A stretch of DNA of 64,000 nt, from positions 8,053 to 72,052 of IMG/VR virus record IMGVR_UViG_3300021399_000012; one strand, 5' to 3'. Below the pieces are notes generated by a model. It worked only from the letters and a program-made list of their open reading frames with translations, did no database searches and had not been told where the DNA came from. This DNA comes from a virus (Duplodnaviria; Caudoviricetes). The translations under genes were made by a program, and so were the position numbers. Shown here in pieces: positions 3,636-64,000 of this stretch; positions within the stretch are counted from its first letter, which is position 1, and each line of letters opens with the position of its first letter.

Positions 3636-3833
3636 ATGGAAAAACTTATATTTAGTTGTGAGTTTCCAGCAGATTCCTCTGAAGCTGAGAGACTTACAGA
3701 TTGGTTAATCACAAATCGTGTTAGAAGAGTAGTTACATCATCTAGTTTCAAGAAGGGTGTTATATTCACATCATACTTTATAGAATGCACAAATAAAATG
3801 CAACTTAAAAGATTATTAGACCTTTTCGCATAA
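3636..3833 (+). CDS. Hypothetical protein (65 aa)
   Basis: ORF with AGGAG RBS. Confidence 0.7.
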   Translation: MEKLIFSCEFPADSSEAERLTDWLITNRVRRVVTSSSFKKGVIFTSYFIECTNKMQLKRLLDLFA

Positions 3834-3852
3834 TTTACAGTCCAGATTATAG
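3827..3852 (+). promoter_or_regulatory. Promoter-like motif copy 1 (consensus CGY-N6-T-N-C-N9-TATRR)
   Basis: CGCATAATTTACAGTCCAGATTATAG; same spacing in 21 copies. Confidence 0.75.
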
Positions 3853-3886
3853 GAAACAATAATTAATATTATTGGAGGGCGACATT

Positions 3887-3994
3887 ATGGAAAAGGAAGA
3901 AACCAGATGGGAACAAATTACTACAGTTGATAATAACGGTTTAGTGATTTGTATCGAGTGGGTTCCTGTAAAGGTCCCGGTAGAGAAAAATTAA
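3887..3994 (+). CDS. Small hypothetical protein (35 aa, not in ORF track)
   Basis: GGAGG RBS; MEKEETRWEQ...VEKN; lies between a promoter motif and a repeat copy. Confidence 0.6.
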   Translation: MEKEETRWEQITTVDNNGLVICIEWVPVKVPVEKN

Positions 3995-4004
3995 ATATTG
4001 TTAA

Positions 4005-4033
4005 AGACCTTAGCAAGTCTATAAACTGCTAAA
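4005..4033 (+). repeat. Dispersed pseudoknot-forming repeat copy 1
   Basis: AGACCTTAGCAAGTCTATAAACTGCTAAA. Confidence 0.9.
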
Positions 4034-4040
4034 TTCTTTT

Positions 4041-4066
4041 CGTATTATATTCAACCATGTATATAG
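4041..4066 (+). promoter_or_regulatory. Promoter-like motif copy 2
   Basis: CGTATTATATTCAACCATGTATATAG followed by GAGG RBS. Confidence 0.75.
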
Positions 4067-4079
4067 GAGGTGAAGTAAT

Positions 4080-4214
4080 ATGGTAAAGGCAAGAGAAAAT
4101 CTAAAAGCAAAAATTAGAGCGATGTATAACGCAGGATATAGTACTGGCGAAATAGCCAAGGAATTAAATATTGCAGAATACAAAGTTGTAAGGATGCTTG
4201 GGATATCATATTAA
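4080..4214 (+). CDS. Stand-alone helix-turn-helix protein (44 aa, not in ORF track)
   Basis: KIRAMYNAGYSTGEIAKELNIAEYKVVRML; GGAGG RBS; terminator follows. Confidence 0.7.
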   Translation: MVKARENLKAKIRAMYNAGYSTGEIAKELNIAEYKVVRMLGISY

Positions 4215-4221
4215 TAACTAG

Positions 4222-4252
4222 CTGGGCGGTTATTACAACCGTCTAGTTTTTT
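4222..4252 (+). terminator. Intrinsic terminator
   Basis: CTGGGCGGTT/AACCGTCTAG stem followed by T6. Confidence 0.7.
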
Positions 4253-4272
4253 CTTGGAGGTGGTTTACAAAT

Positions 4273-5466
4273 ATGGCCTTCGAATTATATCCGCATCAAG
4301 AAGCGGCGTTGAGAAAAATGAAAAACGGTTGCATTCTTAATGGCGGAGTTGGTAGTGGTAAGTCAATAACCGCAATAGCTTATTATTTTTTCAAGAACGG
4401 TGGAATCTATGAACATCATCACATGATGCCAATGGTTAAAAAGCAGTTTCTTGTAATCATAACGACTGCTAGAAAAAGAGATACCTTCGAATGGAATAAG
4501 GAGTTGTCACTTTTCGATCTATATGTCGAGAACGGAGACGCTGTTATAGATTCGTGGAATAACATAAAGAAGTATTCTGATATGAAAGATGCATTCTTTA
4601 TATTTGACGAGCAACGAGCTTCTGGATCAGGAGCTTGGGTAAAGGCATTCCTAAAGATCGCGAAATCTAATGAGTGGATACTGTTGTCAGCGACTCCTGG
4701 TGATTCATGGGTTGAATACGCTCCAGTTTTTGTGGCGAATGGTTTCTATAAAAACATAACCGAGTTTAAAAGAGAGCATGTTGTTATGAGTCATTACGGA
4801 GGATATCCAAAAATTGACAGGTATATAAATACTGTTCGATTGAATAAACTCAGGAGATCTATATTGGTTGATATGGATTTCAAGCGTAAGACTAATAGAG
4901 TGCACATAAACGTTTGGGTTCCTTGGGATAATGTAGCTTATAAAAGAGCTATAAAAACCAGGTTTAATGAGGAAACCGGTGAACCATTTAAGAACGCATC
5001 TGCATTATGTTATTATTTAAGAATGATTCTAAATAGTAATCCAGATCGCTTAGTCTTTACGTACGATATTCTTAAAGAAAAGAAGAAGGCTATTATATTC
5101 TACAATTTTGACTACGAGCTGTATATGCTTGAACAAATGCTAGATGAGTACTCTATACCATATGGAGAATGGAATGGACATCAACACAATCCGATTCCAG
5201 ATACTGACACATGGGCGTATTTAGTTCAGTACAATGCTGGCTCAGAAGGCTGGAATTGTACAAGATGCGATACAGTTATATTCTACAGTCAAAATTATTC
5301 ATACAAGATGACAGAACAAGCTTGCGGTAGAATAGACAGACTTAACACACCGTATAATAATTTATATTATTATCATTTGAAGTCTAAGGCCGGAATAGAC
5401 TTGGCAATAGCTAAAGCATTGAAAGATAAAAAGAATTTTAATGAGTCAGCTTGGACTTCGCAATAA
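4273..5466 (+). CDS. Superfamily 2 helicase
   Basis: Walker A GVGSGKS, DEQR, LSATPG, QACGRIDR motif VI. Confidence 0.9.
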   Translation: MAFELYPHQEAALRKMKNGCILNGGVGSGKSITAIAYYFFKNGGIYEHHHMMPMVKKQFLVIITTARKRDTFEWNKELSLFDLYVENGDAVIDSWNNIKKYSDMKDAFFIFDEQRASGSGAWVKAFLKIAKSNEWILLSATPGDSWVEYAPVFVANGFYKNITEFKREHVVMSHYGGYPKIDRYINTVRLNKLRRSILVDMDFKRKTNRVHINVWVPWDNVAYKRAIKTRFNEETGEPFKNASALCYYLRMILNSNPDRLVFTYDILKEKKKAIIFYNFDYELYMLEQMLDEYSIPYGEWNGHQHNPIPDTDTWAYLVQYNAGSEGWNCTRCDTVIFYSQNYSYKMTEQACGRIDRLNTPYNNLYYYHLKSKAGIDLAIAKALKDKKNFNESAWTSQ

Positions 5467-5484
5467 TTTCAACCTCTTATATGA
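5459..5484 (+). promoter_or_regulatory. Promoter-like motif copy 3
   Basis: CGCAATAATTTCAACCTCTTATATGA. Confidence 0.7.
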
Positions 5485-5556
5485 GAGGAAAATAAAAAAT
5501 TATTTGAACTTTTAAAGGTCTAGGGACTAGCTTATATTAGCAGTTTCTGGGCTTTT

Positions 5557-5702
5557 TGTTTTTACGGCTTTAATAGTGATTTATTTGACTAGTAGAATAA
5601 AAGACTCTTACTCCCCCATTTTAAATAATTTATCGAATCCAATAATCAAATAAATATTTTCACATCGCTATCAAATAAGTCACTATTAAAGCCGTAAAAA
5701 CA
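5557..5702. repeat. 32-bp inverted repeat with 82-nt spacer
   Basis: Arms 5557-5588 and 5671-5702; one mismatch, which is G.U-compatible. Confidence 0.9.
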
Positions 5703-5890
5703 TTATATCTTTGGTATTAATAAGGGGTAGCTTAGTTTATTCAAATTTCCTTTCTGTATTTTTATATTTAGTTTGACGTGTACTTGGTTTATTATTTGTG
5801 TTTTACCTCTTTTTGTGATAGTTATTATTTTTGCATATGTCGGCTACCCTTTATTAATACCAAAGATATATTTAATTATATTTTTTTTAT

Positions 5891-5916
5891 CACATATAAC
5901 GATTGGTAAGTTTTTA
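5891..5916 (+). repeat. 26-bp direct repeat copy 1 (second copy at 8972-8997)
   Basis: CACATATAACGATTGGTAAGTTTTTA directly before an RBS. Confidence 0.85.
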
Positions 5917-5929
5917 GGAGGAATGAATT

Positions 5930-6385
5930 ATGTACAAACTATTCAAAAAATTTATGGAGAAGCTTTTTAGTTATGTGGAAACTGAAAAGAAAGAAGACAC
6001 AGTACCAGAGGTAAATGAGCCTGAAAAGGAAGAGGATACAGTATCAGAAGCAGACGTGAATGCATGTGATGTTCATTATCTGTTCTTCGCTAGCTTTGAT
6101 GAGATGGAAGATATTGAAGAGAAGATCGATAACGTAGTTAATGATCCTTCAGGCATGGTCCCTAATGCGCATGTTACATTGGCTCTCGACGAGGTAGATA
6201 ATATACCTTACGAACCTGACTTGTATGACATTGTGTATGTGTCAGATAAGTTTACAGATCGAGAAGCTATATTCGCTCTCTTCACCAATGCTCAGAAGAA
6301 GTACAAGTCTTTAAATGGCATCTTGAATCGTTTGAAGGCCGAACCAAAGCATGAGGGTAAGAAGTATAAGAAATACACAGTTTAA
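5930..6385 (+). CDS. Hypothetical acidic protein (151 aa)
   Basis: ORF with AGGAGG RBS. Confidence 0.75.
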   Translation: MYKLFKKFMEKLFSYVETEKKEDTVPEVNEPEKEEDTVSEADVNACDVHYLFFASFDEMEDIEEKIDNVVNDPSGMVPNAHVTLALDEVDNIPYEPDLYDIVYVSDKFTDREAIFALFTNAQKKYKSLNGILNRLKAEPKHEGKKYKKYTV

Positions 6386-6397
6386 GAGGTACATGTC

Positions 6398-6640
6398 ATG
6401 ATATACATTATAGCTATTATAGCATTGATTATTGGTATTATATTTGGAATCTTTATCGGTGTCAGGATGAAAGTATCCGAAGTACCTAATGTTGGTACCT
6501 TATGCGTCGATATGGATTCTGCTGGTTTTTTCTGGGTTGAATTTTCAGATAGATCGACTTTTGAATCTATGAAAAATAAATACCTTAATAAGCAGGTTCG
6601 TATGAAGGTGAAACCTGTGCATTATGAAAAGACGCAATAA
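6398..6640 (+). CDS. Hypothetical membrane protein (80 aa)
   Basis: Hydrophobic N-terminal helix; GAGG RBS. Confidence 0.75.
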   Translation: MIYIIAIIALIIGIIFGIFIGVRMKVSEVPNVGTLCVDMDSAGFFWVEFSDRSTFESMKNKYLNKQVRMKVKPVHYEKTQ

Positions 6641-6658
6641 TTTCCGTTTCTTATATGG
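6633..6658 (+). promoter_or_regulatory. Promoter-like motif copy 4
   Basis: CGCAATAATTTCCGTTTCTTATATGG. Confidence 0.7.
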
Positions 6659-6695
6659 GTAATTGGTGCCCGTTTAACATTAAGGAGGTATAGAA

Positions 6696-7115: not shown

Positions 7116-7140
7116 AGTATCTATTATATTAAACAAAACC

Positions 7141-7173
7141 AAGCTATGGGATTCAGGTCCTATAGCTTTTTTT
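7141..7173 (+). terminator. Intrinsic terminator
   Basis: AAGCTATGGGAT/GTCCTATAGCTT stem followed by a T-run. Confidence 0.7.
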
Positions 7174-7189
7174 AGAAGGAGAAACAACA

Positions 7190-7453: not shown

Positions 7454-7455
7454 TT

Positions 7456-7481
7456 CGCAAGGTTTTCAACCATCTATATGG
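7456..7481 (+). promoter_or_regulatory. Promoter-like motif copy 5
   Basis: CGCAAGGTTTTCAACCATCTATATGG. Confidence 0.7.
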
Positions 7482-7515
7482 AATATTAATAAACATATAA
7501 ATGGAGGAAAACATT

Positions 7516-7713: not shown

Positions 7714-7718
7714 TATCA

Positions 7719-7747
7719 AGACCTTAGCAAGTCTTTAAACTGCTAAA
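7719..7747 (+). repeat. Dispersed pseudoknot-forming repeat copy 2
   Basis: AGACCTTAGCAAGTCTTTAAACTGCTAAA. Confidence 0.9.
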
Positions 7748-7754
7748 ACTTTTT

Positions 7755-7780
7755 CGCAATATTTACAGTTTCATATATGG
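7755..7780 (+). promoter_or_regulatory. Promoter-like motif copy 6
   Basis: CGCAATATTTACAGTTTCATATATGG. Confidence 0.75.
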
Positions 7781-7821
7781 AAAAATCAGCATTTTGCAAT
7801 GATGGTAAATTCATTACTACA

Positions 7822-7850
7822 AGACCTTAGCAAGTCTTTAAACTGCTAAA
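7822..7850 (+). repeat. Dispersed pseudoknot-forming repeat copy 3
   Basis: AGACCTTAGCAAGTCTTTAAACTGCTAAA. Confidence 0.9.
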
Positions 7851-7890
7851 ACTTTTTTAGGTAATTATATTATAAGGGAGGTAACTTAAT

Positions 7891-22531: not shown

Positions 22532-22557
22532 CGTTATATTTTCAGCGACATATATGG
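22532..22557 (+). promoter_or_regulatory. Promoter-like motif copy 9
   Basis: CGTTATATTTTCAGCGACATATATGG. Confidence 0.7.
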
Positions 22558-22585
22558 AAAATATGTCTGTAAGGAGGTAAACAGT

Positions 22586-22917: not shown

Positions 22918-22943
22918 CGCATTATCTTCAGGTGGATATATAG
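22918..22943 (+). promoter_or_regulatory. Promoter-like motif copy 10 (preceded by hairpin GAGTC-TTAATT-GACTC and a T-run)
   Basis: CGCATTATCTTCAGGTGGATATATAG. Confidence 0.75.
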
Positions 22944-22956
22944 GAGGTGAAGTATT

Positions 22957-23241: not shown

Positions 23242-23267
23242 CGCGAAAATTTCAACCCCTAATATGA
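23242..23267 (+). promoter_or_regulatory. Promoter-like motif copy 11 (upstream of the nuclease-RNAP operon)
   Basis: CGCGAAAATTTCAACCCCTAATATGA. Confidence 0.65.
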
Positions 23268-23351
23268 GAGGAGAATAAAAATAGTCCGTTATTTTATAGA
23301 CTATTATATTCAGCCTCTTAATTTTTTGTTTACTGGGGGAACAATGCTGAT

Positions 23352-23672
23352 ATGAAAAACGAAAATAAATTTCAATCAGAGCTAATCGAAGAACTAAAAT
23401 CTTTATTTCCTGGATGCATTGTCCTGAAAAACGATCCTAATTATATTCAAGGTATACCAGATCTATTAGTGTTATACAAAAAGAAATGGGCTGCCTTAGA
23501 ATGTAAGAAAACAAAAAATGCAAAGCATAGACCTAATCAAGATTATTATGTTGATAAAATGTCTAAGATGTCATATGCAAATTTTGTTTATCCAGAAAAT
23601 AAGGAGGTAGTGTTAAGTGATCTGGAAAAATCATTCAAACCTAACAGGAAGACACGCAAAACTAAGTCCTAG
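23352..23672 (+). CDS. VRR-NUC-type PD-(D/E)xK nuclease (putative resolvase)
   Basis: E..FQ...GIPDL......ALECK. Confidence 0.8.
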   Translation: MKNENKFQSELIEELKSLFPGCIVLKNDPNYIQGIPDLLVLYKKKWAALECKKTKNAKHRPNQDYYVDKMSKMSYANFVYPENKEVVLSDLEKSFKPNRKTRKTKS

Positions 23673-24252
23673 TCAATCAGCTAGATGGGCTACAAAAGAT
23701 TTGGATAATGACGCCGTCTTTAAGATGATCAATTCTGGTTATTCTCAAGAGATCGGAACGTTACTGCATGAATACGCAGAACAATGTATCCGCTTTTCTT
23801 TAAAGATGACTAAGTATTCAAAGAGAGATGTTTTGAAGCATCTATTAATTAACAGGATTCCCAGAAACGTTGCTAACGAATATGTAGAAAGATGTTTTGA
23901 TAATCTTTTACTATATGTTAATGATGCTATTGGTTTCAGAATGGATCCTGAAGTAATATTATGGTATTCCGATTATATTTTTGGAACAGCAGATGCCATA
24001 ATGTTCAGAGATAACAAATTACAAATCCATGATTTAAAAACTGGAATAACTCCAGCACACATGGAACAATTATTAACATATGCAGCTCTATTCTGCTTAG
24101 AGTATAAAATTAAACCTGCAGACATTGATATAGAGTTGAGAATATATCAGTTAGAGGAGGTTATAGTCCATAAACCGGAAACAGATGAGATCGTTCCGAT
24201 TATAGACAAAATAGTCACATACAACAAGTGGCTGACTAAAGACTTAGATTAA
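23617..24252 (+). CDS. PD-(D/E)xK exonuclease-like protein (Cas4/DUF2800-like)
   Basis: HAKLSPS, GTLLHEYAE, FGTADAI, IHDLKTG. Confidence 0.75.
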   Translation: MIWKNHSNLTGRHAKLSPSQSARWATKDLDNDAVFKMINSGYSQEIGTLLHEYAEQCIRFSLKMTKYSKRDVLKHLLINRIPRNVANEYVERCFDNLLLYVNDAIGFRMDPEVILWYSDYIFGTADAIMFRDNKLQIHDLKTGITPAHMEQLLTYAALFCLEYKIKPADIDIELRIYQLEEVIVHKPETDEIVPIIDKIVTYNKWLTKDLD

Positions 24253-24272: not shown

Positions 24273-27200
24273 ATGGAAGAATTCTTTGATGATGATTTTG
24301 AAGAAGATTCAGAAGAATCGTTAATGCATTATGGCACTAAACGACATTCGGGAAGATACAAGTATGGATCTGGTGAGAATCCATATCAGCACGAAGCGTG
24401 GTTTGTGTGGAATTACAACACTATAAAAAAGAATAATTTTGGTATTAGCGATGATGATATCAGAAAAGCCATGGGATACACCGGCAATGGTGGAAAGGCT
24501 AAATTTAATAGAGAAAAAGAAAGAGCATTTGACAATATAAAGGATATTGCAGATGTTATCATGCAGAAAGAAGGTTATACTAGAGATTCAGAAGTTGCGA
24601 GAGCACTTGGTATGAGTTCAGGAGACCTTCGAGCATTAAAAGGTATAGCGAAAGCTAAACAAAATGAGGACCTTATGAGACGTAACTTACAGCTCGTAGA
24701 GCATGGTTACAGTTCTAGAAATAAAAGAGCGGAAATGCTCGGTATTCCAGAATCCACTTTAAGAAATATGGAAAAAGATGGATATATGGAAAGAAATTCT
24801 AAAGCATACAATGTTGCTGAAGAAATGAAGAAGTACATCAAAGATGATAAATCTTATTATGATGTCGGAAAAGGTATTAATTATTCATTGAACGTTTCTG
24901 AACACACGATGCAAGAAGCCCTTACAATTCTGAAGAATCAAGGTTACGGTGTTCATAACATACAGGTTCCTCAGGCCACAAATCCTGATCAGAAGACTAC
25001 GGTTTCCGTATTAGGTCCTCAAGGGGCTTCTTGGGCTGATACGATGAAGAATCAGAATAATATCAGCACTTTTGATATGTATTTTAATGATGATGGAAAA
25101 ACTAGAAGAGGCATCTATGAGCCAAAATCTATAGATTCATCTAGAATTAAGATACATTATGGTGATGAGCAGTTCCAGGGTACTTTAGGTACTGATATGG
25201 ATGGTGTTATACAGCTTCGTAGAGGAGTTGGAGACATATCATTAGGAAAAGCGTCATACGCTCAGGTTCGTATCATGGTTGATGGTACGCATTACTTAAA
25301 AGGTATGGCTATCTATTCTGATAATATGCCTGCTGGAAAAGACATCATCTTTAATACTAATAAGCCTAGTGGAACACCAGCTTCTAAAGTATTCAAAAGC
25401 TTAAAGACAGTCGACATCAAAGATGCGAATGGTAATGTTATCAAAACAGAAATTGATAAAGATAATCCTTTTGGAGCAAATATTAAAGCTGGTGGACAGA
25501 ACTTCTATAAAAATAAAAATGGTGAATATGTCCAGACATCTATTGATAATTTTGAGAAAGCAACAGCATCTAATATTAAGAAAAGTATAGATGGTGAAAG
25601 ATACTCATTATCTGCTGCGAATATTATCAAAGAAGAAGGAGATTGGAATCATTATCAAAAGAAGTTGGCTTCTCAGTTCTTATCTAAGCAGCCTATGGAA
25701 CTCATTAACAAACAGCTGAATTTAACATATGCTGACAAGAATGCTGAATTTGAAGAAATTAAGAGTTTAACAAACCCTACTATCAAAAGAAAACTTCTTG
25801 CAGACTTCGCTGAATCATGTGATAAAGCAGCTGTTGATTTAAAAGTAGCAGCTTTACCAGGACAAACAGCTAAAGTAATATTGCCTGTTACTGATCTTAA
25901 AGAAGGTGAATGCTATTGTCCTACTTATAAAGATGGTACTTATTTGGCATTGGTTAGATATCCACATGCTGGAACTTTCGAAATTCCTATTGTTAAAGTT
26001 AATAATAAGAACAAGCAAGGTCAATCTATAGTTGGTCCAAATGCGCAGGATGCTATCGGAATATCTGCAAAAGATGCAGAACAGCTTTCAGGAGCTGATT
26101 TTGATGGCGATACTGTAGTTTGTCTACCTACAACTAGAAAGCCTACAGCTAATGGTATCTATATTGCTAGTAGAAAGCCATTTGAATCTTTAAAGAACTT
26201 CTCTACAAATGAGTATGCTATCTCTGATGAAAGATTCAAAGCTACTGGAGAGTACATTTTAGGAAAGAATCCTTTAAAGACAGATACTGAGAAAGTAGCT
26301 AATCTTAAGAACAAGATAGCAAACGGTTATAAGCCTACTGAAGCCGACTTTATAGAAGTTGGTAAAGAAAAGCTTGTTATGACTGAAGATGCTAAGCAAA
26401 AGCAAATGGGTGTTGTATCTAACCTTATTACAGATATGACGTTAAAAGGTGCATCTCCAGATGAATTAGCAAGAGCTACAAAGGCTTCAATGGTCGTAAT
26501 CGATGCTGTAAAGCATGAACTTGATTACAAGCAAGCATATGAAGATTGCCGAATTCCTGAGTTAAAGAAGATCTATCAGAAAGAGTACAATGAAGAAACT
26601 GGTGAAACAACTGGTGGTGCTTCTACATTGATATCACGTTCTAAGTCAGAAGTGAGAATCAAAGAAAGAAAAGAAGGCTCTACTGATTACATTGATCCTA
26701 AAACAGGAGAAAAAGGAAAGGCTCGTATGTATTACGATCCGAATACCGGTAAGCGTATCTATACTGAGACTGGTAGAACCTATACCGATAAGAATGGTAA
26801 CGAGGTGGAGGCTCTTCAGAAAGTAACCCGTATGGCCTATGCGGACGATGCCATGGACCTGGTATCCCAAATGGGTACTCAACAGGAAAAGGCATATGCA
26901 AGATATGCAAATGCACTTAAAGAGATGGCTAGAGAAAGTAGAAAAGAACTCTACAAGACCGACCGTGCCGTATACGATAAGGATGCTAAAGAAAAGTATG
27001 CCATCCAGGTAGAAAGACTACAGTCTAAGCTAGAATTAGCAGTTGCTAACTCCCCTAGAGAAAGACAGGCCCAGATAGATGCTAATAAGACTATCAAGGA
27101 GGCCATTCAGAGAGATCCTTCTCTTAAAGATGACAAAGAGCATAATGCTAGACTTAGACAACAAGCCATAGCGGCATCCCGGGATAAGTATGGGGCCAAA

Positions 27201-27473
27201 GGTAAAGATACTAGAATTAAGATAGAAGATGATGAATGGGAAGCTATACAGGCTGGAGCTATATCGGATAGTAAATTAGAGGAGATACTGAAGTATTGCG
27301 ATCTAGATGTTCTTAGAGAACGTGCAATGCCAAAGACTCAAAAGACATTATCCAATGCTCAGGCAGCTAGAATTAAAGCTATGAAGAACTCAGGCTTTAC
27401 AATAGCTGAAATAGCTGAACAAATGTCGTTGTCAACATCAACAGTGTCAAAGTACATTAAAGAAGCTGCTTAA
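24273..27473 (+). CDS. Single-chain two-barrel (DPBB) RNA polymerase, probably virion-associated
   Basis: QVR...YLKG, RYPHAG and LSGADFDGD catalytic motifs; HTH-like segments near the N-terminus and at the C-terminus; acidic leader ending in LMH. Confidence 0.85.
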   Translation: MEEFFDDDFEEDSEESLMHYGTKRHSGRYKYGSGENPYQHEAWFVWNYNTIKKNNFGISDDDIRKAMGYTGNGGKAKFNREKERAFDNIKDIADVIMQKEGYTRDSEVARALGMSSGDLRALKGIAKAKQNEDLMRRNLQLVEHGYSSRNKRAEMLGIPESTLRNMEKDGYMERNSKAYNVAEEMKKYIKDDKSYYDVGKGINYSLNVSEHTMQEALTILKNQGYGVHNIQVPQATNPDQKTTVSVLGPQGASWADTMKNQNNISTFDMYFNDDGKTRRGIYEPKSIDSSRIKIHYGDEQFQGTLGTDMDGVIQLRRGVGDISLGKASYAQVRIMVDGTHYLKGMAIYSDNMPAGKDIIFNTNKPSGTPASKVFKSLKTVDIKDANGNVIKTEIDKDNPFGANIKAGGQNFYKNKNGEYVQTSIDNFEKATASNIKKSIDGERYSLSAANIIKEEGDWNHYQKKLASQFLSKQPMELINKQLNLTYADKNAEFEEIKSLTNPTIKRKLLADFAESCDKAAVDLKVAALPGQTAKVILPVTDLKEGECYCPTYKDGTYLALVRYPHAGTFEIPIVKVNNKNKQGQSIVGPNAQDAIGISAKDAEQLSGADFDGDTVVCLPTTRKPTANGIYIASRKPFESLKNFSTNEYAISDERFKATGEYILGKNPLKTDTEKVANLKNKIANGYKPTEADFIEVGKEKLVMTEDAKQKQMGVVSNLITDMTLKGASPDELARATKASMVVIDAVKHELDYKQAYEDCRIPELKKIYQKEYNEETGETTGGASTLISRSKSEVRIKERKEGSTDYIDPKTGEKGKARMYYDPNTGKRIYTETGRTYTDKNGNEVEALQKVTRMAYADDAMDLVSQMGTQQEKAYARYANALKEMARESRKELYKTDRAVYDKDAKEKYAIQVERLQSKLELAVANSPRERQAQIDANKTIKEAIQRDPSLKDDKEHNARLRQQAIAASRDKYGAKGKDTRIKIEDDEWEAIQAGAISDSKLEEILKYCDLDVLRERAMPKTQKTLSNAQAARIKAMKNSGFTIAEIAEQMSLSTSTVSKYIKEAA

Positions 27474-27501
27474 TTAAAGTTTGAGAAAGGAGAAAAATTA
27501 A

Positions 27502-27744
27502 ATGGCTAAAGCTTATATGTTAACAACAGTTGATAATCCATTCAATCCTTTTGAAGACTTTGAGAAATGGTATCAGTTTGATGAGGAAAAAGGTTATCAT
27601 TCATGTCAAAGATTGGCAAGATTCACAAACAATTCAGATTTCATGTCTGATGCTGAGCAAAGAGAAGATCAATCACAAGCAATTGATAAAATTATTGCTT
27701 TAGACTTTACAAATTTGTATAAAAAAGTTTCTAAAGATCTTTGA
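27502..27744 (+). CDS. Hypothetical protein downstream of the RNAP gene (80 aa)
   Basis: AAGGAG RBS; YMLTTVDNPFNPF motif. Confidence 0.75.
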   Translation: MAKAYMLTTVDNPFNPFEDFEKWYQFDEEKGYHSCQRLARFTNNSDFMSDAEQREDQSQAIDKIIALDFTNLYKKVSKDL

Positions 27745-27880
27745 TTGACTCATTGAATGAATCATTTCTAAATTAAAAAGAAGATTGTTGTGTGATTTAA
27801 TATTTATTTTGGATTCTTCTTTCTGTTTTCATTCTTTTGGTTGGCACACTGAGGCTAATCGGATATAAAAAGAATGGACA

Positions 27881-27950
27881 GGGGGAGGGGTCCGCTAAAT
27901 ATACACCCCCTCCTATATCGCGGCGGTCTTAAAAAATTCTCCGGAGGGAT
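27881..27950. other. GC-rich island upstream of the terminase genes; candidate cos/packaging site
   Basis: GGAGGGG...CCCCTCC inverted repeat and CGCGGCGG in an AT-rich intergenic region upstream of terS and HNH. Confidence 0.4.
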
Positions 27951-27961
27951 ATTTTTAAAAC

Positions 27962-28071
27962 TTATATCGGTATTAGTACTGGGCATTTAAGCGTGAACGC
28001 GTGGAAAAATCCCCCAGCTAAAAAGTACACCATAAGTAATGCTTAAGTGCTCAGTACTGATACTGATATAA
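27962..28071 (+). ncRNA. 33-bp stem-loop in the leader of the packaging operon
   Basis: All five non-Watson-Crick positions are G.U on the + strand; 44-nt loop. Confidence 0.55.
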
Positions 28072-28102
28072 ATTATATATCAGGTAAAAGGAGTGAAAAC
28101 TA

Positions 28103-28444
28103 TTGGGAAAGGCTAAGCAAACTAGTGATGGTTTTGAGGCTAAGACTCGTCCAGCGTTGTCTCCAGAAGCAAAACAAGCTCAATTGATAGGTTTAGCCAT
28201 GGATAATGTCGAACGACGTCTAAGAGAGAACAAAGCCTCAGCTCAAGAGATCATTCACTTTTTAAAATTAGGTACAGTCCAGGCAGAATTGGACTTAGAG
28301 AGAGCAAAATTAGAAAACGAATTAGTAAAAGCTAAAACAGAATCACTTCAGTCGGCAGCAAAGATGGAAGAAACATATACGAAAGCTCTAGAAGCTATGC
28401 GAAGATATTCTGGACATGGGGACGAAGAGGATGAGAACATATAG
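28103..28444 (+). CDS. Putative terminase small subunit
   Basis: Position before HNH and terL; helical 113-aa protein; TTG start with GGAG RBS. Confidence 0.6.
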   Translation: MGKAKQTSDGFEAKTRPALSPEAKQAQLIGLAMDNVERRLRENKASAQEIIHFLKLGTVQAELDLERAKLENELVKAKTESLQSAAKMEETYTKALEAMRRYSGHGDEEDENI

Positions 28445-28853: not shown

Positions 28854-29675
28854 GTGACCTATATGAGTGAACAATATTTAGCCCATCATGGCATACGAGG
28901 TCAAAAATGGGGAAAGAAAAATGGTCCCCCTTATCCTTTAGATTGGACCGATCATTCTACAGCAGAAAAGAAAGAACTGACTAAGGATGAAATACGTGCC
29001 ATGACTGAGGACATGGATGAAGTTACAAACTTCAACAAGAGAGTAGCTGTGTACTATGATACAAAGATGGAAGTCAATAAATCGCAGGCACAGTATCTCG
29101 ATAGTAAGAAAACCGCAGGAGAAAAATTCAAAGAGAATCTCAAGAATAAATTAACCAGCGGAATTATCGACGGATTGAGCAAAGGTGCTTCAAAAGCTGT
29201 TGAAACATCCATAAACAACATCACTGATGAATTATGGAAGAGAGCGAGAGAGCAGATGGATCCAGAAGGCGAAGCTATGAAAGCTAAGACTGCTGAACTG
29301 GAAAGAAAGAATGCTTTATCGAAAGCACAAAGCGAATACGATCGATACAAGAAAGAAAAAGAGAACAAGCAGGTAAACGATGTGTTATCTAAGCTTGACC
29401 TAGAAGACAAATTACGTAAAGCAACACAAGCGAAAGAAGACGCTTCTTATTATAGAGAAAAAGAACTTGCAAATAGAGCAAGGGAAGAAGCCGAGACAAA
29501 GGCTAAAACTCAGGAAGCTCTTAATAAGCTTGCTAAAGCAGAATATGAGCGTGATTTAATGTCAAACGACCCATCTAAGTTCTTTAGTAATGATAAAAAA
29601 TCAAAAGGTTCATCAGACAGTCTATCAGAAGATGACGTACGTAGAATAGCTAAAGAAATAATGGATGAGATGTAA
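28854..29675 (+). CDS. Putative internal head protein with LAH-HGIRGQKWG motif (273 aa)
   Basis: YLAHHGIRGQKWGKKNGPPYPL followed by a Lys/Glu-rich coiled coil. Confidence 0.7.
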   Translation: MTYMSEQYLAHHGIRGQKWGKKNGPPYPLDWTDHSTAEKKELTKDEIRAMTEDMDEVTNFNKRVAVYYDTKMEVNKSQAQYLDSKKTAGEKFKENLKNKLTSGIIDGLSKGASKAVETSINNITDELWKRAREQMDPEGEAMKAKTAELERKNALSKAQSEYDRYKKEKENKQVNDVLSKLDLEDKLRKATQAKEDASYYREKELANRAREEAETKAKTQEALNKLAKAEYERDLMSNDPSKFFSNDKKSKGSSDSLSEDDVRRIAKEIMDEM

Positions 29676-31456: not shown

Positions 31457-32266
31457 ATGGAAAGAGCAGAGTTTTATTCAGCACTATATGATTCTAATAA
31501 TTATTTAGAGCATCATGGTGTTGATGGACAGAAATGGGGTAAACGTAATGGACCTCCATATCCATTGAATTCCGAGGGTAAAGCAAGTCTGAAGAAACAG
31601 AGAAAAGCTGAGAAATTAAATACCGAGAATAAATTAGCATATGAACAATATAAATATGCTGGAAGAGCGAATACTGCATATAATGTTAAAGTGGCAGGTC
31701 GTGTAGCAGCTCCTGTTGGAGGTATAATTGGAGCTGGTATAGGTAGCACGGTAGGACCTGAAGGCACTGTATTAGGCACAATAGCCGGACTTGCAATAGC
31801 TGATCTTGGTGCGTCAGCAACCTCTGGTATTATTAATCTCGGTATGAATGCAGTAAGAAATAGCAAGTATAAAAAAGCTCTCATAGAGTCGCAGAAACGT
31901 GCAGAAGATGATTTGGATAGACTTATGATATCGAAAAAATACAAACCAAATCTCGATAGCGGTGGTGATTTTATGACAAAGACAATTAATGGTGTTGAGA
32001 TTGATGTCGATTATACATACGACGCAGATCGTAACCGTATCGCAAAAAATGTCCAAAAATTAGAACCTAAGGTTGGATATATAAATGATCAGTTCACAAA
32101 GGAGTTGAAAGATAATGGCTATGGTGCACTTGTGAATAATAAAAGACATATGTATATATCAGATACAGTTTGCGAGATAGGTACCTATCACGACGGCCAT
32201 GACTATTCAACATATATAAACGAAGAAAATGGTAAAATTGAAAAAGGCATTATGATGAATGGTTAA
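31457..32266 (+). CDS. Putative internal head/ejection protein with LEH-HGVDGQKWG motif and Gly-rich hydrophobic hairpin (269 aa)
   Basis: 19-aa leader; GGIIGAGIG...GTIAGLAIA segment. Confidence 0.7.
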   Translation: MERAEFYSALYDSNNYLEHHGVDGQKWGKRNGPPYPLNSEGKASLKKQRKAEKLNTENKLAYEQYKYAGRANTAYNVKVAGRVAAPVGGIIGAGIGSTVGPEGTVLGTIAGLAIADLGASATSGIINLGMNAVRNSKYKKALIESQKRAEDDLDRLMISKKYKPNLDSGGDFMTKTINGVEIDVDYTYDADRNRIAKNVQKLEPKVGYINDQFTKELKDNGYGALVNNKRHMYISDTVCEIGTYHDGHDYSTYINEENGKIEKGIMMNG

Positions 32267-32325: not shown

Positions 32326-32700
32326 ATGAATGAATCAATATTATCTACTATAAAAGATATGCTAGATGTTGATGTTGACCCAGAAGAAGATGAAATTGGA
32401 GAATTCGACAATATATTAATTATTAATATTAATACAGTGTTCTCCATATTAAATCAAATGGGAGTGGGCACAGATGAACCATTTGTTATTACGGGCTATG
32501 ATGAGACATGGGACCAATTTATAGGAGAAGCTGTAGGTATTGAAATGGTGAAAACTTATATTTACTTAAAAGTAAAGATGATGTTCGATCCACCATCAGG
32601 AGCCCAAAAAGAAGCAAATGAAAATGTAATTAAAGAACTGGAATATAGACTATATGTTCTGGAAGATCTTAGAAAAGGAGCGATGAATAATGAATCGTGA
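32326..32700 (+). CDS. Putative head-tail adaptor/connector (124 aa)
   Basis: SIL.TIK.ML...FD..L...IN.VFS.L.Q.GVG...FDPP pattern typical of this module; remote assignment. Confidence 0.55.
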   Translation: MNESILSTIKDMLDVDVDPEEDEIGEFDNILIININTVFSILNQMGVGTDEPFVITGYDETWDQFIGEAVGIEMVKTYIYLKVKMMFDPPSGAQKEANENVIKELEYRLYVLEDLRKGAMNNES

Positions 32701-33061
32701 TGATTACTTCTCTAAATTAAGTAAATCTAAGAATGCATTGTCTCACGGAATGATGACTGCGGAACCCGTAGAGAGAGTCTACGTACCAGTGGTAAAAAAT
32801 GAGTCGTCTGACGCTGAAATAAAGAAGATGATTTCTAATTACGAGAAAGATATCGCAGCTAGAAAGTCTAAGTTAAAAGAACTTAGAGACAAACAGGAAG
32901 AACTCCGTGCTAATATGGAGTCCACACGAAATCTTTTAACAAGAATGGATGACGAAATGTCCGAGTTATCAAATCAGGTTGGCATTGTGAAAGATAGGAT
33001 ACTGGAAGACAATGCAAAGATTGATACTCTTCAATCATCCCTTAGAATTTTAGGAAAATAG
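32690..33061 (+). CDS. Coiled-coil protein with the 19-aa L-x-H leader (123 aa)
   Basis: MNRDDYFSKLSKSKNALSH-G. Confidence 0.7.
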   Translation: MNRDDYFSKLSKSKNALSHGMMTAEPVERVYVPVVKNESSDAEIKKMISNYEKDIAARKSKLKELRDKQEELRANMESTRNLLTRMDDEMSELSNQVGIVKDRILEDNAKIDTLQSSLRILGK

Positions 33062-33080: not shown

Positions 33081-34100
33081 ATGGATAGACGAGAATTCTA
33101 TTCTAACTTAGCTGATTCTAGAGAAGCTTTAGAACATGCTGAAGGTTTTCAGAGAGCAAATCACAAATACATAAATCGTTTCCGTGGTAGAAATGGTAAA
33201 TGGATTTACGAGTATGCTGAAGATCTGAAAGAGAAGGCTAATTCTACAGCTGCTAAAGCTAAGAAATCGCTAGGCTCTGCAGGAAATGATGCTAAGAAAA
33301 CATTAGACTCTGCAGGGGATAATGCTAAGAAAACATTGGCCAAAGCAAAAACTCGAGTGTCGAAAGGCATGAATATGGCTTCTAAATTTGGATCTGCTAA
33401 GCTTAAAGAACTGTCGAAAACCAGCGACACAGCAGTCGCAAAAGGAAAGTATCATTTAGCTAATCTAAAAAATAAAGTAGAAAAACCAACAGCTCCAGAA
33501 GAGTGGGAAAAATATGGCAAATATCAACGCGAATATGAAACTAAACAGGCTCGTATTGGCAAAGCCAGAGATCGTATGCATAAAATAGAAGCCGGTCACC
33601 ATACGTCTGATAAAAAGGCTGATAGAAAAGAACGTCTTAAGAACGTACAAAATGATTACAGTGTAGTCGGAAATGCTAACAAACAGCGCCAATTCATTGA
33701 AAATCAAGAATACGTAGAGAAAAAGCGACAAGAAGCCAAAAAGGCAAAAGAGAAAGATCGTAAAGATCGTATAGAATATAAAAAAGAAGCTGCACAAGAA
33801 GAAAGACTCGGTACTACATATGACAAGGCGCTCGATTCTATTTTCGATAAGACTGTTCGTGATAATAAAGAAAGATCACGACAGGCAAGTGCTAAAGATA
33901 CTCCTAAGGAGTATAAAGAAGAATACATATTTAACACTGGTAGTGGGTCTGATCAAGACATTCTTATAAACCTTAAGAGACAGGAAGACAGAGATAAGCT
34001 ATTAACAGCTAAAAAACGTGATGAAGCTGCTGCTCATAAGAAATATCTTGAAAAAATGCGTAGAGAACGTAATAGACAACGTCGTAACGATCGTACCTAA
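33081..34100 (+). CDS. Highly basic putative internal head protein with the 19-aa L-x-H leader (339 aa)
   Basis: MDRREFYSNLADSREALEH-A; HKYI....RNGKWIYEY; Lys/Arg-rich. Confidence 0.7.
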   Translation: MDRREFYSNLADSREALEHAEGFQRANHKYINRFRGRNGKWIYEYAEDLKEKANSTAAKAKKSLGSAGNDAKKTLDSAGDNAKKTLAKAKTRVSKGMNMASKFGSAKLKELSKTSDTAVAKGKYHLANLKNKVEKPTAPEEWEKYGKYQREYETKQARIGKARDRMHKIEAGHHTSDKKADRKERLKNVQNDYSVVGNANKQRQFIENQEYVEKKRQEAKKAKEKDRKDRIEYKKEAAQEERLGTTYDKALDSIFDKTVRDNKERSRQASAKDTPKEYKEEYIFNTGSGSDQDILINLKRQEDRDKLLTAKKRDEAAAHKKYLEKMRRERNRQRRNDRT

Positions 34101-59620: not shown

Positions 59621-59748
59621 GTACTAACTGTCGAGATGCGCATAAGACAGATATAGTATAAATATATTTTTAATTTAGCACCGGTACTTCAAAATAGGGA
59701 AGTATCGCTTACTGTCGTTCTAATTTGACAGTAGAAAGGAGTTATATT

Positions 59749-60534: not shown

Positions 60535-60549
60535 GAAGGAGGTGTTAGC

Positions 60550-61023: not shown

Positions 61024-61041
61024 AAAGGAGGCTGAATAGAA

Positions 61042-61449: not shown

Positions 61450-61480
61450 TAGTCGAAATAATATCAGCTAAACAAATTTA

Positions 61481-61510
61481 AAGGGACTCGAAGTTATATT
61501 TGGGTCCCTT
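61481..61510 (+). terminator. Hairpin ending the post-lysis cluster
   Basis: AAGGGACTCGAA/TTTGGGTCCCTT. Confidence 0.65.
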
Positions 61511-61612
61511 ATTGTTTAGTGCTATAATTTCAACTCCTATTTACTTTTTCGCAATATTTACAATGTATATTATGAGAAACTAGGTAACTAGAAATATAGG
61601 AGGAATTATATT

Positions 61613-61723
61613 ATGATTAAATTAGTGATGGTTCTTATATTGTGTGTAGCAGCATACCAGGTAGCATGGTATGACGAAAACAAAACAAGAAAGGAACTAG
61701 AAGCAAAAGGGGTCGAATATTAA
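61613..61723 (+). CDS. Small membrane peptide (36 aa, not in ORF track)
   Basis: AGGAGG RBS; MIKLVMVLILCVAAYQVAW... Confidence 0.6.
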   Translation: MIKLVMVLILCVAAYQVAWYDENKTRKELEAKGVEY

Positions 61724-61784
61724 TCGGCCTCCTATTTTTTTTTTTCGTATTATATTCTGGCTATTATATAGGAGGTGATACATT

Positions 61785-61931
61785 ATGAAAATGGAAAAGC
61801 TATTATTTATTATGGTATTTGTATTAACCATATTAAGCTTATTAGCAGGATATTGGAGTATAAAGATCGTATGGTGCTGGGTGGCACTTATAGCGGGAAT
61901 TATATTTGATAAATGCACTCCAAAAGATTGA
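61785..61931 (+). CDS. Small two-helix membrane protein (48 aa, not in ORF track)
   Basis: AGGAGGTG RBS; hydrophobic. Confidence 0.65.
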   Translation: MKMEKLLFIMVFVLTILSLLAGYWSIKIVWCWVALIAGIIFDKCTPKD

Positions 61932-61961
61932 GTCTGATTAATTTCAGACCCTTTCTTTTTT
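61930..61961 (+). terminator. Intrinsic terminator, near-duplicated at 62303-62334
   Basis: GTCTGA/TCAGAC stem with T-run; 31 of 32 nt identical between copies. Confidence 0.75.
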
Positions 61962-62033
61962 CGCAATTTTTACAGACTTCTATATGAGGAAATAAGCAGT
62001 AATGCTTAAAGGATTCACATAATTACTGGTTCA

Positions 62034-62062
62034 AGACCTTAGCAAGTCTATAAACTGCTAAA
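62034..62062 (+). repeat. Dispersed pseudoknot-forming repeat copy 5
   Basis: AGACCTTAGCAAGTCTATAAACTGCTAAA. Confidence 0.9.
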
Positions 62063-62107
62063 ACTTTTTCGTAATTTATTCAGGTAGATATATAGGAGGT
62101 GAAAACA

Positions 62108-62314
62108 ATGACCAAATTAGAATATGAAGTTAAACTAAACGATATTAAAAATAAAATAGAGGAGGCTGAAAAGAATGAAAATTGGATGCTCGCTAGATTA
62201 TTAATATACGAGTATAATAGGTGGCTTTATATTGCAGAGTTGGACATTGCTAGACAAGAAGCAGAAAAAGAATTTGAAAGATACAAACGAAAGGTACGGA
62301 AAGAGTCTGATTGA
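62108..62314 (+). CDS. Small helical protein (68 aa)
   Basis: AGGAGGTG RBS. Confidence 0.7.
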   Translation: MTKLEYEVKLNDIKNKIEEAEKNENWMLARLLIYEYNRWLYIAELDIARQEAEKEFERYKRKVRKESD

Positions 62315-62378
62315 TTTCAGACCCTTTCTTTTTTTTTTTTCGTAATTTATTCAGGTAGATATATAGGAGGTGAATGAT

Positions 62379-62642
62379 ATGAGTAAAACAATTTTTCATA
62401 CATGCGACATTTTTAATATTACGGATCAAAAAATAAAAATGGAATATTTTGATTTCTGTTATACAAAGGCTTTGGAATGTGGGCTTACTTGTACATGTAA
62501 GGACATTGGAAGCACACCAAAGCTCAAATTGGAAGGAACTAAATGGGAATTTGTAAAATACTATTTTTTGACGTTGACAAAATGTGACTGTAAATGGAAA
62601 GGTATTAAACGATTATTATCATTCGTATTGGAGCGGTCCTAA
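62379..62642 (+). CDS. Hypothetical protein (87 aa)
   Basis: AGGAGGTG RBS; hairpin and T-run follow. Confidence 0.7.
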   Translation: MSKTIFHTCDIFNITDQKIKMEYFDFCYTKALECGLTCTCKDIGSTPKLKLEGTKWEFVKYYFLTLTKCDCKWKGIKRLLSFVLERS

Positions 62643-62735
62643 CAAGGACTGTTCTTTTTTTTCGCAATTTTTGCAATGTATATTATGAGAAATAAACATT
62701 ATAGTTTAAACGAAAGGATTAAAAAGGTGATAACT

Positions 62736-62927
62736 ATGAAAAATTCAAAAGAGACAGGATTAAGTCTTATAATAACAAACATGTATGACTTATGCAGATT
62801 TCTTAGTAAAGAAAGTCTTGTATGGGAACATCATGATATTGTGGATTATGAGATTGTTCCGCTTAAAGGAATTTCTGGTGAACCAATTGTAAGAATTGAC
62901 TTTACTTATAATGATTTTGACGACTAA
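62736..62927 (+). CDS. Hypothetical protein (63 aa)
   Basis: AAGGTGA RBS. Confidence 0.6.
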   Translation: MKNSKETGLSLIITNMYDLCRFLSKESLVWEHHDIVDYEIVPLKGISGEPIVRIDFTYNDFDD

Positions 62928-62933
62928 AACAAA

Positions 62934-62962
62934 AGACCTTAGCAAGTCTATAAACTGCTAAA
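62934..62962 (+). repeat. Dispersed pseudoknot-forming repeat copy 6
   Basis: AGACCTTAGCAAGTCTATAAACTGCTAAA. Confidence 0.9.
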
Positions 62963-63045
62963 ACTTTTCGCAATTTTTACAAACTCCTATATGAGATAAA
63001 CAATCATATGTTAAATCCGCTTTATGCGGTAGAAGGAGTATTATT

Positions 63046-63282
63046 ATGAAGAAATTTATTTTAGGTGTAATGTGTACTATAATCGCATTAGGAGCAGTTG
63101 TGGCCTTAAACACAACATTGGAAACTGAGAAAGTTGTTCGATACGGACAGCATTGGGAAGGTGACCAACTTGTAGAAAACAGTTATGCAGATAATGCAAC
63201 ACTCAAAGTTAAGAGTGTTAGTGTTGGAGCATACACAGTTGAGATACATGATGGTGACTTAACATTCAATGTTGGACGATAG
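63046..63282 (+). CDS. Secreted or membrane-anchored protein (78 aa)
   Basis: MKKFILG signal-like N-terminus; AAGGAG RBS. Confidence 0.7.
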   Translation: MKKFILGVMCTIIALGAVVALNTTLETEKVVRYGQHWEGDQLVENSYADNATLKVKSVSVGAYTVEIHDGDLTFNVGR

Positions 63283-63382
63283 AACACAAGGTTGGGTGAG
63301 CCTTTAATTCACCCTTTCTTTTTTTTCGCATTATATTCAGGTTTATATATGGAAATAAGAAAGCATTAAGGAGGTAAATATT

Positions 63383-63577
63383 ATGCAGAGTATTATGTTA
63401 ATTATTGGAGGATTAGTATTAGCAGCAATTATTGTTATAATGACTAAGGGTATTTCTATCGATGAAGATACGAAATGGACCAAAGAAAAAGTAGCAATTA
63501 TAGTAGCTGTACTAATGGTCTTTACAGTAGTAGCAACAATGATGGTACAAACTGGATTAATGTATTTAATAGGTTAA
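63383..63577 (+). CDS. Small two-helix membrane protein (64 aa)
   Basis: AAGGAGG RBS; hydrophobic. Confidence 0.7.
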   Translation: MQSIMLIIGGLVLAAIIVIMTKGISIDEDTKWTKEKVAIIVAVLMVFTVVATMMVQTGLMYLIG

Positions 63578-63583
63578 TTTCCA

Positions 63584-63612
63584 AGACCTTAGCAAGTCTT
63601 TAAACTGCTAAA
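63584..63612 (+). repeat. Dispersed pseudoknot-forming repeat copy 7
   Basis: AGACCTTAGCAAGTCTTTAAACTGCTAAA. Confidence 0.9.
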
Positions 63613-63658
63613 CTTTTTCGCATTATATTCAGGTGAATATATAGGAGGTGATTCAATT

Positions 63659-63922
63659 ATGGAAACTACTGAACAAAGATTGGATTTTTTAGAGAAGGCA
63701 ACAATCAAACAGAACGACATTATGATTAACATAAATAATCATATATTAGAGTTGCTCAATAATGATTCCGAGATATGGAATAAGATTGGCGAGAACGATA
63801 AATGGTATGTTGATCAATTATTGACGTTGACTAGGATTGTTGTGGAGCTCGCTGAAAAATCTACTAAACAGAATGAGAGAATCGCAGAACTTGAGAAAAT
63901 TATAAAGGAGAATAATGTCTAG
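63659..63922 (+). CDS. Coiled-coil hypothetical protein (87 aa)
   Basis: AGGAGGTG RBS. Confidence 0.7.
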   Translation: METTEQRLDFLEKATIKQNDIMININNHILELLNNDSEIWNKIGENDKWYVDQLLTLTRIVVELAEKSTKQNERIAELEKIIKENNV

Positions 63923-64000
63923 ATTTTCTAGGCATTACCCTTTTTCGCATTATATTCAGCTTTTTATATGGAAAACCATATAAGGAGGTAAATAAATATG

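Follow-up and report, generated by a model that had tools for sequence, protein, structure and literature searches.

A predicted phage-encoded RNA polymerase and its probable promoters

Within a supercluster of phages infecting Actinobacteria and Firmicutes, the signature gene encodes a putative RNA polymerase (RNAP) with helix-turn-helix (HTH) modules at both ends, termed HTH-RdRP-HTH, whose polymerase activity was proposed from sequence alone and for which no promoter was described (Koert et al., bioRxiv 10.1101/842583); our literature searches found no promoter described for this family either. Here we consider a divergent, AT-rich, 72-kb member of the family, studied through a 64,000-nucleotide stretch of DNA (the window) that corresponds to bases 8053–72052 of the 72,052-bp virus record IMGVR_UViG_3300021399_000012, and in particular a short motif that recurs 26 times in this genome, together with a 1066-residue protein encoded at 24273–27473 on the plus strand. 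The 26 copies are probably promoters specific to this protein, a predicted single-chain two-barrel RNAP, and not read by the host σA holoenzyme, an interpretation to which we assign a probability of about 0.68; the assignment to the phage RNAP rests on comparative evidence and on the geometry of the sequence. Coordinates are those of the window unless given as genome positions, and motif position 1 is the C of CGCA, with T22-A23-T24 forming the TAT. The 1066-residue protein is a member of the HTH-RdRP-HTH family (PHROG 4291, which includes FP_oengus gp55 and ORF75 of phage 1706) by virtue of its DxDGD signature and of the HTHs at both ends, and this phage shares with the family a gene order comprising an exonuclease, the RNAP, a small conserved open reading frame (ORF) and the packaging genes.

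Two further systems of single-chain two-barrel enzymes offer points of comparison. YonO, encoded by the Bacillus prophage SPβ, is a DNA-dependent RNAP of this type, and the paper describing it gives no promoter sequence (PMC5467207). As far as the likeness can be drawn from that published description, YonO transcribes the late operon, made up of structural and lysis genes, from a single start, whereas in the phage considered here the signal lies on early and replication genes and is absent from the structural block. Thermus phage P23-45 has two two-barrel RNAPs with promoter motifs of their own, gp96, which is fused to the tape measure and carried in the virion, and gp64, which is not a virion protein (PMC10770324). 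As proposed here for the 1066-residue enzyme, these RNAPs recognize motifs peculiar to their phage, which stand on pre-early and early genes and among them on a polymerase gene; they nevertheless belong to other families, have no reported HTH modules and read motifs unrelated to the present one. The layout of the signal also resembles that of T7/T3/SP6-type promoters, namely a unit of about 25–30 bp with a TATA followed by a purine at +1, a purine-rich initial transcript and many copies on the same strand, and the variant in phage 1706 even reads ACACTATAG, as in the T7 type, although T7-type enzymes have a Pol-I-like fold unrelated to the two-barrel RNAP.

The signal itself has been met before in another guise. 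For the Gordonia cluster DJ phages Vardy and Conley, genome announcements reported five copies of an intergenic motif (50 bp or 43 bases long) whose TATAAT was read as a σ70 -10 box and which “may regulate gene expression” (PMC9671010, PMC10868162). Their motif is the present signal as it occurs in actinophages (CGCA..TTACACGCCCTATAATGAGACCCC..AAAGGA), a form recovered here in Duffington, Bing, Arcadia and ReqiPoco6; the two reports contain no link to a phage polymerase, no register shared across phyla and no argument about the start site.

A repeated motif confined to one strand

The first ~125 bases of the record recur at its end, IMG/VR lists it with direct terminal repeats and a completeness of 100%, and all called genes of the 72-kb genome lie on the plus strand. 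A megablast search of 7 kb against phage records gave no match, and a single-protein scan of genome contigs returned no close relative. The nearest relatives of the RNAP are one 99% identical copy and, beyond it, proteins at 45% identity. Motifs were found by k-mer and position weight matrix (PWM) scans, in six complete relatives independently; here, a 34-nt PWM was scored against 50 shuffled genomes, and the skeleton of invariant bases against dinucleotide shuffles.

A first-pass annotation, made by a model from the sequence alone, had listed 21 copies of a 26-bp motif with fixed spacing. All of them are present at their coordinates, with the seven bases C1, G2, T10, C12, T22, A23 and T24 invariant in 21/21, A4 in 19, A13 in 18 and purines always at positions 25–27; no copy carries an insertion or deletion, and the C1–C12–T22 spacing is constant. 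Five more copies lie in the 8 kb preceding the window (genome positions 460, 759, 1027, 1208 and 2865) and, since the copy at 63946 is that at genome position 73 owing to the terminal overlap, the total is 26 unique copies. Sites score 22.9–41.5 bits with the PWM, compared with 16.2 for the best match in the 50 shuffled genomes and with 10.2 (plus strand) and 12.5 bits (minus strand) for the best non-sites; even the bare seven-base skeleton is matched 32 times in the window versus 6.5 ± 2.2 times in shuffles (maximum 13). The claim that every copy lies on the plus strand extends to the whole genome (26 plus, 0 minus). The motif is thus real and strand-specific.

The copies run from genome position 69.6 kb across the wrap to 31.3 kb, each of them intergenic. 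As the annotation had remarked, they tend to come after T-runs and before ribosome-binding sites (RBSs): at least four T residues stand immediately 5' of C1 in 18 of the 26, often with a predicted hairpin before them, and a start codon preceded by a Shine–Dalgarno (SD) sequence follows 11–54 nt downstream in 21. Each small early gene would then be a cassette of terminator, promoter and RBS. No copy reaches the PWM threshold between 23.3 and 61.5 kb, also in line with the annotation, a stretch that encodes the RNAP, terminase, portal, a protease–capsid fusion, a 2293-residue tape measure, the tail and downstream genes; one degenerate match to the skeleton stands at 27893, inside a cos-like gap before terS.

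Strand specificity and an intergenic place just before the RBS would also suit an element acting at the RNA level (a processing site, or a signal for translation or stability), and the 5' end of a tRNA that begins at position 26 of a copy in FP_oengus could be a processing point; a binding site for replication or packaging may be put in the same category. Such explanations are nevertheless improbable, as most copies directly follow a hairpin and T-run at which transcripts from upstream would terminate, the motif shows neither conserved internal pairing nor any match to an Rfam family, the conserved blocks are split by variable spacers of fixed length, as in DNA sites read by proteins, and one conserved copy heads the RNAP operon.

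Motif and polymerase are inherited together

Six complete relatives, phages of Faecalibacterium, Lactococcus, Rhodococcus, Streptomyces, Arthrobacter and Gordonia with RNAPs 33–40% identical to the present one, carry a motif in the same register (CGCR-N7-CA-N5/6-TATA-purines), only on the gene strand and without copies in the structural block. It takes the form CGCGAAAAannCA-N6-TTTATGg in FP_oengus (15 plus, 0 minus), cacAtgTTTTACA-N5-CTATAGTAGA in Lactococcus phage 1706 (12 plus, 0 minus) and CGCA-N7-ACA-N5-TATAATGAGACC in ReqiPoco6 (14 plus, 0 minus), while Streptomyces phage Bing, Arthrobacter phage Arcadia and Gordonia phage Duffington have 10, 8 and 7 plus-strand copies, respectively, and none on the other strand. 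With this phage included, the RNAP is accompanied by the motif in 7/7 complete phages. The pattern extends to 80 RNAP-bearing Clostridia loci from genomes and metagenome-assembled genomes, where a loose regular expression found 132 plus-strand matches versus 16 on the minus strand and 19 in shuffles; in 66 of these loci, the 3.5 kb upstream of the RNAP gene contain a plus-strand copy, mostly at about 940 nt, a position matched here by the copy at 23242, which is 1.03 kb upstream of the gene.

The association also holds in the opposite direction, since all 21 viral contigs of at least 50 kb that were chosen by the FP_oengus-type pattern alone encode the RNAP, including 19/19 at a completeness of at least 90%. 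Where bacterial chromosomes carry such a prophage, all occurrences of the motif fall within it (5/5 copies within 26 kb of the 3.1-Mb chromosome of F. prausnitzii, and 6/6 in F. hattorii), and it is therefore not part of a host regulon. On this comparative evidence, motif and polymerase are passed on together in phages whose hosts belong to three phyla-level groups. Of the suggestion in the first-pass annotation that the copies are early or middle promoters of the phage RNAP, the connection with the enzyme is supported by comparison, and promoter function is probable.

Several of these genomes show, in addition, a strand bias of a shorter word: ATATT is found 179 times on the plus and 8 on the minus strand in ReqiPoco6, 104 and 2 in Bing, and 132 and 6 in Duffington, many of the copies being intragenic, and GATATT 69 and 9 times in FP_oengus. 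The bias of ATATT is weak in the AT-rich phage considered here (330 versus 244) and absent in Arcadia and 1706.

Where transcription would start

Three independent features bear on the start site. Motif position 25 is the first base of AGGAGGTG in six copies, whose ATG follows 15–17 nt past T24; ARAGORN predicts in FP_oengus a tRNA whose first base is position 26 of a copy; and the 5' arm of the hairpin in the RNAP-operon leader is a purine run that starts at position 25–26, in this phage as in 38 of the 59 distinct leaders of relatives. Because SD, tRNA 5' end and leader hairpin all begin at 25–26, transcription is predicted to start at about motif position 25 (±1), so that CGCA would lie near -24, CA near -13 and TAT(A) between about -5 and -1. 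The first-pass annotation had taken TAT as -12 to -10, with CGCA near -33, a third box near -22 and the start 7–12 nt farther on. That register has to be abandoned, since a transcript starting 7–12 nt past TAT would lose its SD, and the start is therefore expected directly after TAT. The AT-rich phage provides the tightest sequence-based limit on the start site, its SD being fused to TAT.

The known promoter classes were considered against this geometry. For a σ70 promoter, no TAnnnT exists in any register, either here (TATATR, TATRRR) or in FP_oengus (TTTATGG), and two high-scoring copies in Bing have TTTAAT, with a T at the critical -11 position. The best possible reading, TTCGCA-N15-TATATR, has to be compared with a spacing of 17 ± 1 bp, and an SD or tRNA begins 1–2 nt past TAT. 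σ70-like sites are not enriched between 21 and 38 kb (61 found versus 62.8 in shuffles), and a phage-encoded σ factor was rejected as the genome has no gene with a Sigma70_r2 domain. The earlier description of the motif as non-σ70 is upheld by this comparison. A σ54 promoter (TGGCAC-N5-TTGCW) was likewise rejected, there being no conserved GG and C3–C12 being 9 nt apart instead of 11. The actinobacterial hosts of the relatives are not known to have σ54. Hairpin promoters of the N4 type were rejected as well, because complementarity (including positions 14–19 against 25–30) was not above that of permuted sites in four phages and several registers. With regard to T7-type polymerases, PF00940 had no match in the 72-kb genome, although the control genomes gave none either, and the large ORFs that were scanned included no gene of this kind.

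Ordinary early promoters read by the host σA holoenzyme, or by an alternative host σ factor, would stand where these copies stand, before small early genes and past terminators, as the strong early host promoters of SPO1 or T5 do, and the TT before CGCA in this phage does give a TTCGCA 15 nt ahead of TATATR. This explanation is nonetheless very hard to sustain. A spacer of 15 nt is too short and there is no T at -7; the TT, which relatives do not conserve, merely ends the terminator that comes before it; the GG-N10-GC geometry of σ54 does not fit; and the limits set on the start site by SD, tRNA and leader hairpin disagree with it. Furthermore, the motif is missing from host chromosomes outside the prophage, and phages of hosts as different as Actinobacteria, Lactococcus and Clostridia have retained this one signal.

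The polymerase and its operon

At 24273–27473 (plus strand), the 1066-residue protein matches phrog_4291 with an E-value of 2e-297 and combines N-terminal HTH repeats with a C-terminal HTH resembling σ region 4. Its GADFDGD occupies residues 607–613, of which D609, D611, G612 and D613 are invariant in 38 homologs. Pfam recognizes only HTH modules in the protein itself, among them weak matches to σ70 region 4 at residues 1025–1065. Sigma70_r4_2 is matched by 38/38 aligned homologs and PF05183 (RdRP) by 25 of these 38 (best E-value 8.5e-6), the 1066-residue protein having no match to PF05183 at E ≤ 0.1. In the PDB, a sequence search returned HTH repeats only. The AF2 model (mean predicted local distance difference test score 75) was aligned by Foldseek with probability 1.00 to QDE-1 (E-value 1e-6), plant RDR2 and P32 gp64/P74 gp62, the latter being non-virion RNAPs of the P23-45 family, and more weakly to P23-45 gp96 and bacterial β'; TM-scores are low (0.27–0.36), as expected of multi-domain models. 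The prediction that the protein is a single-chain two-barrel (double-psi β-barrel) RNAP is thereby well grounded. Neither the 2293-residue tape measure nor the other large virion proteins of this phage contain DxDGD, and a second, tape-measure-fused RNAP as in P23-45 was rejected on that ground. The family is very large: of 8,000 candidates that were scored, over 7,800 are homologs at E ≤ 1e-20, and homologs 33–40% identical over 98% of the length occur in 250 phage records, most records still being labelled “helix-turn-helix DNA-binding protein”.

The RNAP shares its operon with a PD-(D/E)XK exonuclease (23617–24252, plus strand; phrog_3953, E-value 1.4e-60; DUF2800), and the operon, which also includes an endonuclease-like gene, is headed by the copy at 23242–23271 (22.9 bits). 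The first-pass annotation had noted that the RNAP gene lies downstream of its eleventh copy and had suggested positive feedback. The position is as described, and self-activation through this copy is plausible, because a copy ~0.94 kb upstream of the RNAP gene recurs in most of the motif-bearing related loci. Between promoter and genes, at 23266–23327 (plus strand), the first transcribed purine run pairs, from motif position 25, with a downstream pyrimidine run that is followed by a U-run (hairpin at 23266–23319; minimum free energy -19.3 kcal/mol, z -1.95). In the 38 leaders of relatives that share this design, the arms differ in sequence while pairing is kept, and the structure resembles an attenuator, or else a 5' stabiliser, of the mRNA that encodes the polymerase.

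From these elements, we infer that the phage RNAP itself initiates, unaided, rather than the host enzyme helped by a phage factor. Its own N-terminal HTH repeats and C-terminal σ region 4-like HTH would read CGCA (near -24) and CA (near -13), the AT-rich TATAT just before the start would melt, and the RNA would begin at the purine of motif position 25 (±1). By driving the exonuclease–RNAP operon through its leader of 5' hairpin and U-run, the copy at 23242 would let the enzyme feed its own synthesis.

Four points weigh against this interpretation. The first is that the core of the variants in 1706 and the actinophages is TATAAT or TATAGT, which has been read in print as a σ70 -10 box. Secondly, a phage RNAP whose gene follows its own promoter cannot begin without some initial enzyme, which in temperate relatives has to be provided by host RNAP. 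Thirdly, a protein with several HTH modules could in principle be an activator of the host enzyme and not an initiating polymerase. Lastly, no covariation could be shown between promoter base 4 (A or G) and residues of the RNAP, the best column (residue 176, mutual information 0.33 of 0.80) not being upheld in the seven complete phages. The first three of these points also speak for the main rival explanation, in which host RNAP would act with a phage specificity factor, in the manner of the σ appropriation by MotA/AsiA of T4, CGCA and CA being bound by a phage HTH protein, possibly the 1066-residue protein itself, and TATA being a degenerate -10 box; here too, temperate relatives need host RNAP to start the lytic programme. 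We regard it as unlikely. TAnnnT is lacking in every register in this phage and in FP_oengus, some strong Bing copies have a T in place of A(-11), and a start 6–8 nt past the -10 box would fall inside the SD of six copies or inside the FP_oengus tRNA; moreover, the catalytic GADFDGD and the polymerase fold are intact, and an activator would need neither.

The source of the first enzyme

If the RNAP gene stands behind its own promoter, the earliest enzyme has to be supplied either by the virion or by weak transcription on the part of the host. A tentative and rather doubtful extension of the proposal is that the 1066-residue enzyme is a self-sufficient machine delivered by the virion. Its N-terminal peptide L-x-H-Y-G-x-K-R-x-S-G-R-Y would load it into the capsid; ejected with the DNA, it would find the -24/-13/-1 promoter through its own HTHs without any host factor, start at the purine after TAT and carry out the whole early and replication programme, in which its own gene, controlled by the attenuator, is included. 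In favour of delivery, the homolog in 1706, ORF75, is annotated in GenBank as “structural protein”, without “putative”; this is an annotation only, and the label is also borne by ten other ORFs of 1706, three of them outside the morphogenesis module. The N-terminal LxHYGxKRxSGRY is invariant in 38 RNAP homologs, and a related LxHHGxxGQKWG (a sub-threshold match to DUF7211) heads the head-module ORFs at 28863 and 31457 as well as at least seven proteins of ReqiPoco6. Many relatives, on the other hand, are prophages and have to begin with the host enzyme, which counts against delivery by the virion as a strict requirement.

N-termini of the form L-x-H-(H/Y)-G followed by basic residues, Gly and Trp are found at 24273–24390 (the RNAP), on several unrelated proteins of the head module at 28863–28950, 31457–31560, 32690–32760 and 33081–33150, and in ReqiPoco6 at 15.1–21.9 kb; the peptide may be a virion-loading or cleavage signal.

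The sole intergenic extended -10 element of the genome, TGCTATAAT, lies at 61520–61528, just past a hairpin and ~20 nt before the first early copy, and is a candidate host σA promoter for opening the early region. This phage has no tyrosine integrase. In FP_oengus, an 870-bp gap (26895–27765) precedes the copy of the RNAP operon and contains repeated TGGCCAAAAA boxes and σ70-like hexamers; it may be a host-read, repressor-controlled switch for the first polymerase of this temperate member.

The motif-free block and its boundary

The block running from packaging to lysis, which lacks the motif, would be transcribed either by another enzyme or by polymerase that continues from the RNAP operon through the cos-like gap, and such read-through is possible. 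The gap, in the region 27744–28103, separates the small post-RNAP ORF from terS by 358 nt. Part of it (27876–27960) is conserved with FP_oengus 31661–31745, in the order GGGGAGGGGTC .. ACACCCCC .. ATCGCGsCGGTCTT .. CCGGAGG .. GATATTT. Because the mapped cos end of ReqiPoco6 falls at the place equivalent to this gap, the conserved stretch is probably a cos site.

The individual copies and their surroundings

All copies in the window lie on the plus strand and are delimited here from C1 to about +6. On the window's left side, the copy at 3827–3856 (31.6 bits) precedes the ATG of a 35-residue ORF by 37 nt, and that at 4041–4070 (36.6 bits), with AGGAGGTG from position 25, has a start codon 16 nt past T24. 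The copy at 5459–5488 (37.7 bits) stands before a gene-free gap of 463 nt, the next called gene being 448 nt away. There follow copies at 6633–6662 (25.9 bits), 7456–7485 (27.9 bits), 7755–7784 (40.5 bits) and 11672–11701 (25.4 bits), the last with a start codon just 11 nt past T24, and a copy at 12079–12108 (32.4 bits) that is directly 3' of a tRNA-like T-arm. This T-arm-like sequence, GGTTCGATTCC, lies within ~11960–12076 and ends directly 5' of the copy; ARAGORN and Rfam call no tRNA there and found nothing in the window. Ahead of the RNAP-operon copy, two more stand at 22532–22561 (30.0 bits) and 22918–22947 (38.8 bits; AGGAGGTG from position 25).

The early array at the right end begins with the copy at 61550–61579 (33.1 bits) and continues with 61746–61775 (37.1 bits), 61962–61991 (34.2 bits), 62070–62099 and 62341–62370 (36.2 bits each), 62663–62692 (30.7 bits), 62969–62998 (35.2 bits), 63327–63356 (37.9 bits), 63619–63648 (39.8 bits) and 63946–63975 (41.5 bits), the last being the copy at genome position 73; AGGAGGTG starts at position 25 in those at 61746, 62070, 62341 and 63619.

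A second repeat accompanies some of these sites. Eight near-identical copies of AGACCTTAGCAAGTCTnTAAACTGCTAAA, each followed by a T-run, are found at 4003–4037, 7717–7751, 7820–7854, 12306–12340, 62032–62066, 62932–62966, 63582–63616 and at genome positions 990–1024, six of them directly 5' of a promoter copy and two directly 5' of an RBS, in places held elsewhere by hairpin terminators. AGACCTTAGCAAGTCTnTAAACTGCTAAA may serve the phage polymerase as a terminator recognized by its sequence, with a possible parallel in P23-45, where a conserved 26-nt motif occurs at termination sites.

Implications for single-chain RNA polymerases

The proposed promoter bears on how single-chain two-barrel RNAPs of the YonO/QDE-1 type recognize their start points, in a family that ranges from prophages of gut Clostridia to soil actinophages. 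As a 30-bp element with a predicted start, it is directly testable with one purified protein and a short piece of DNA. With its help, the genes of thousands of phage genomes would become assignable to early and late classes, and it could yield a compact orthogonal transcription unit for Gram-positive hosts. If delivery by the virion were true, this RNAP would represent, in thousands of gut and soil phages, a minimal relative of the cellular RNA polymerases, with “sigma plus core” in one chain.

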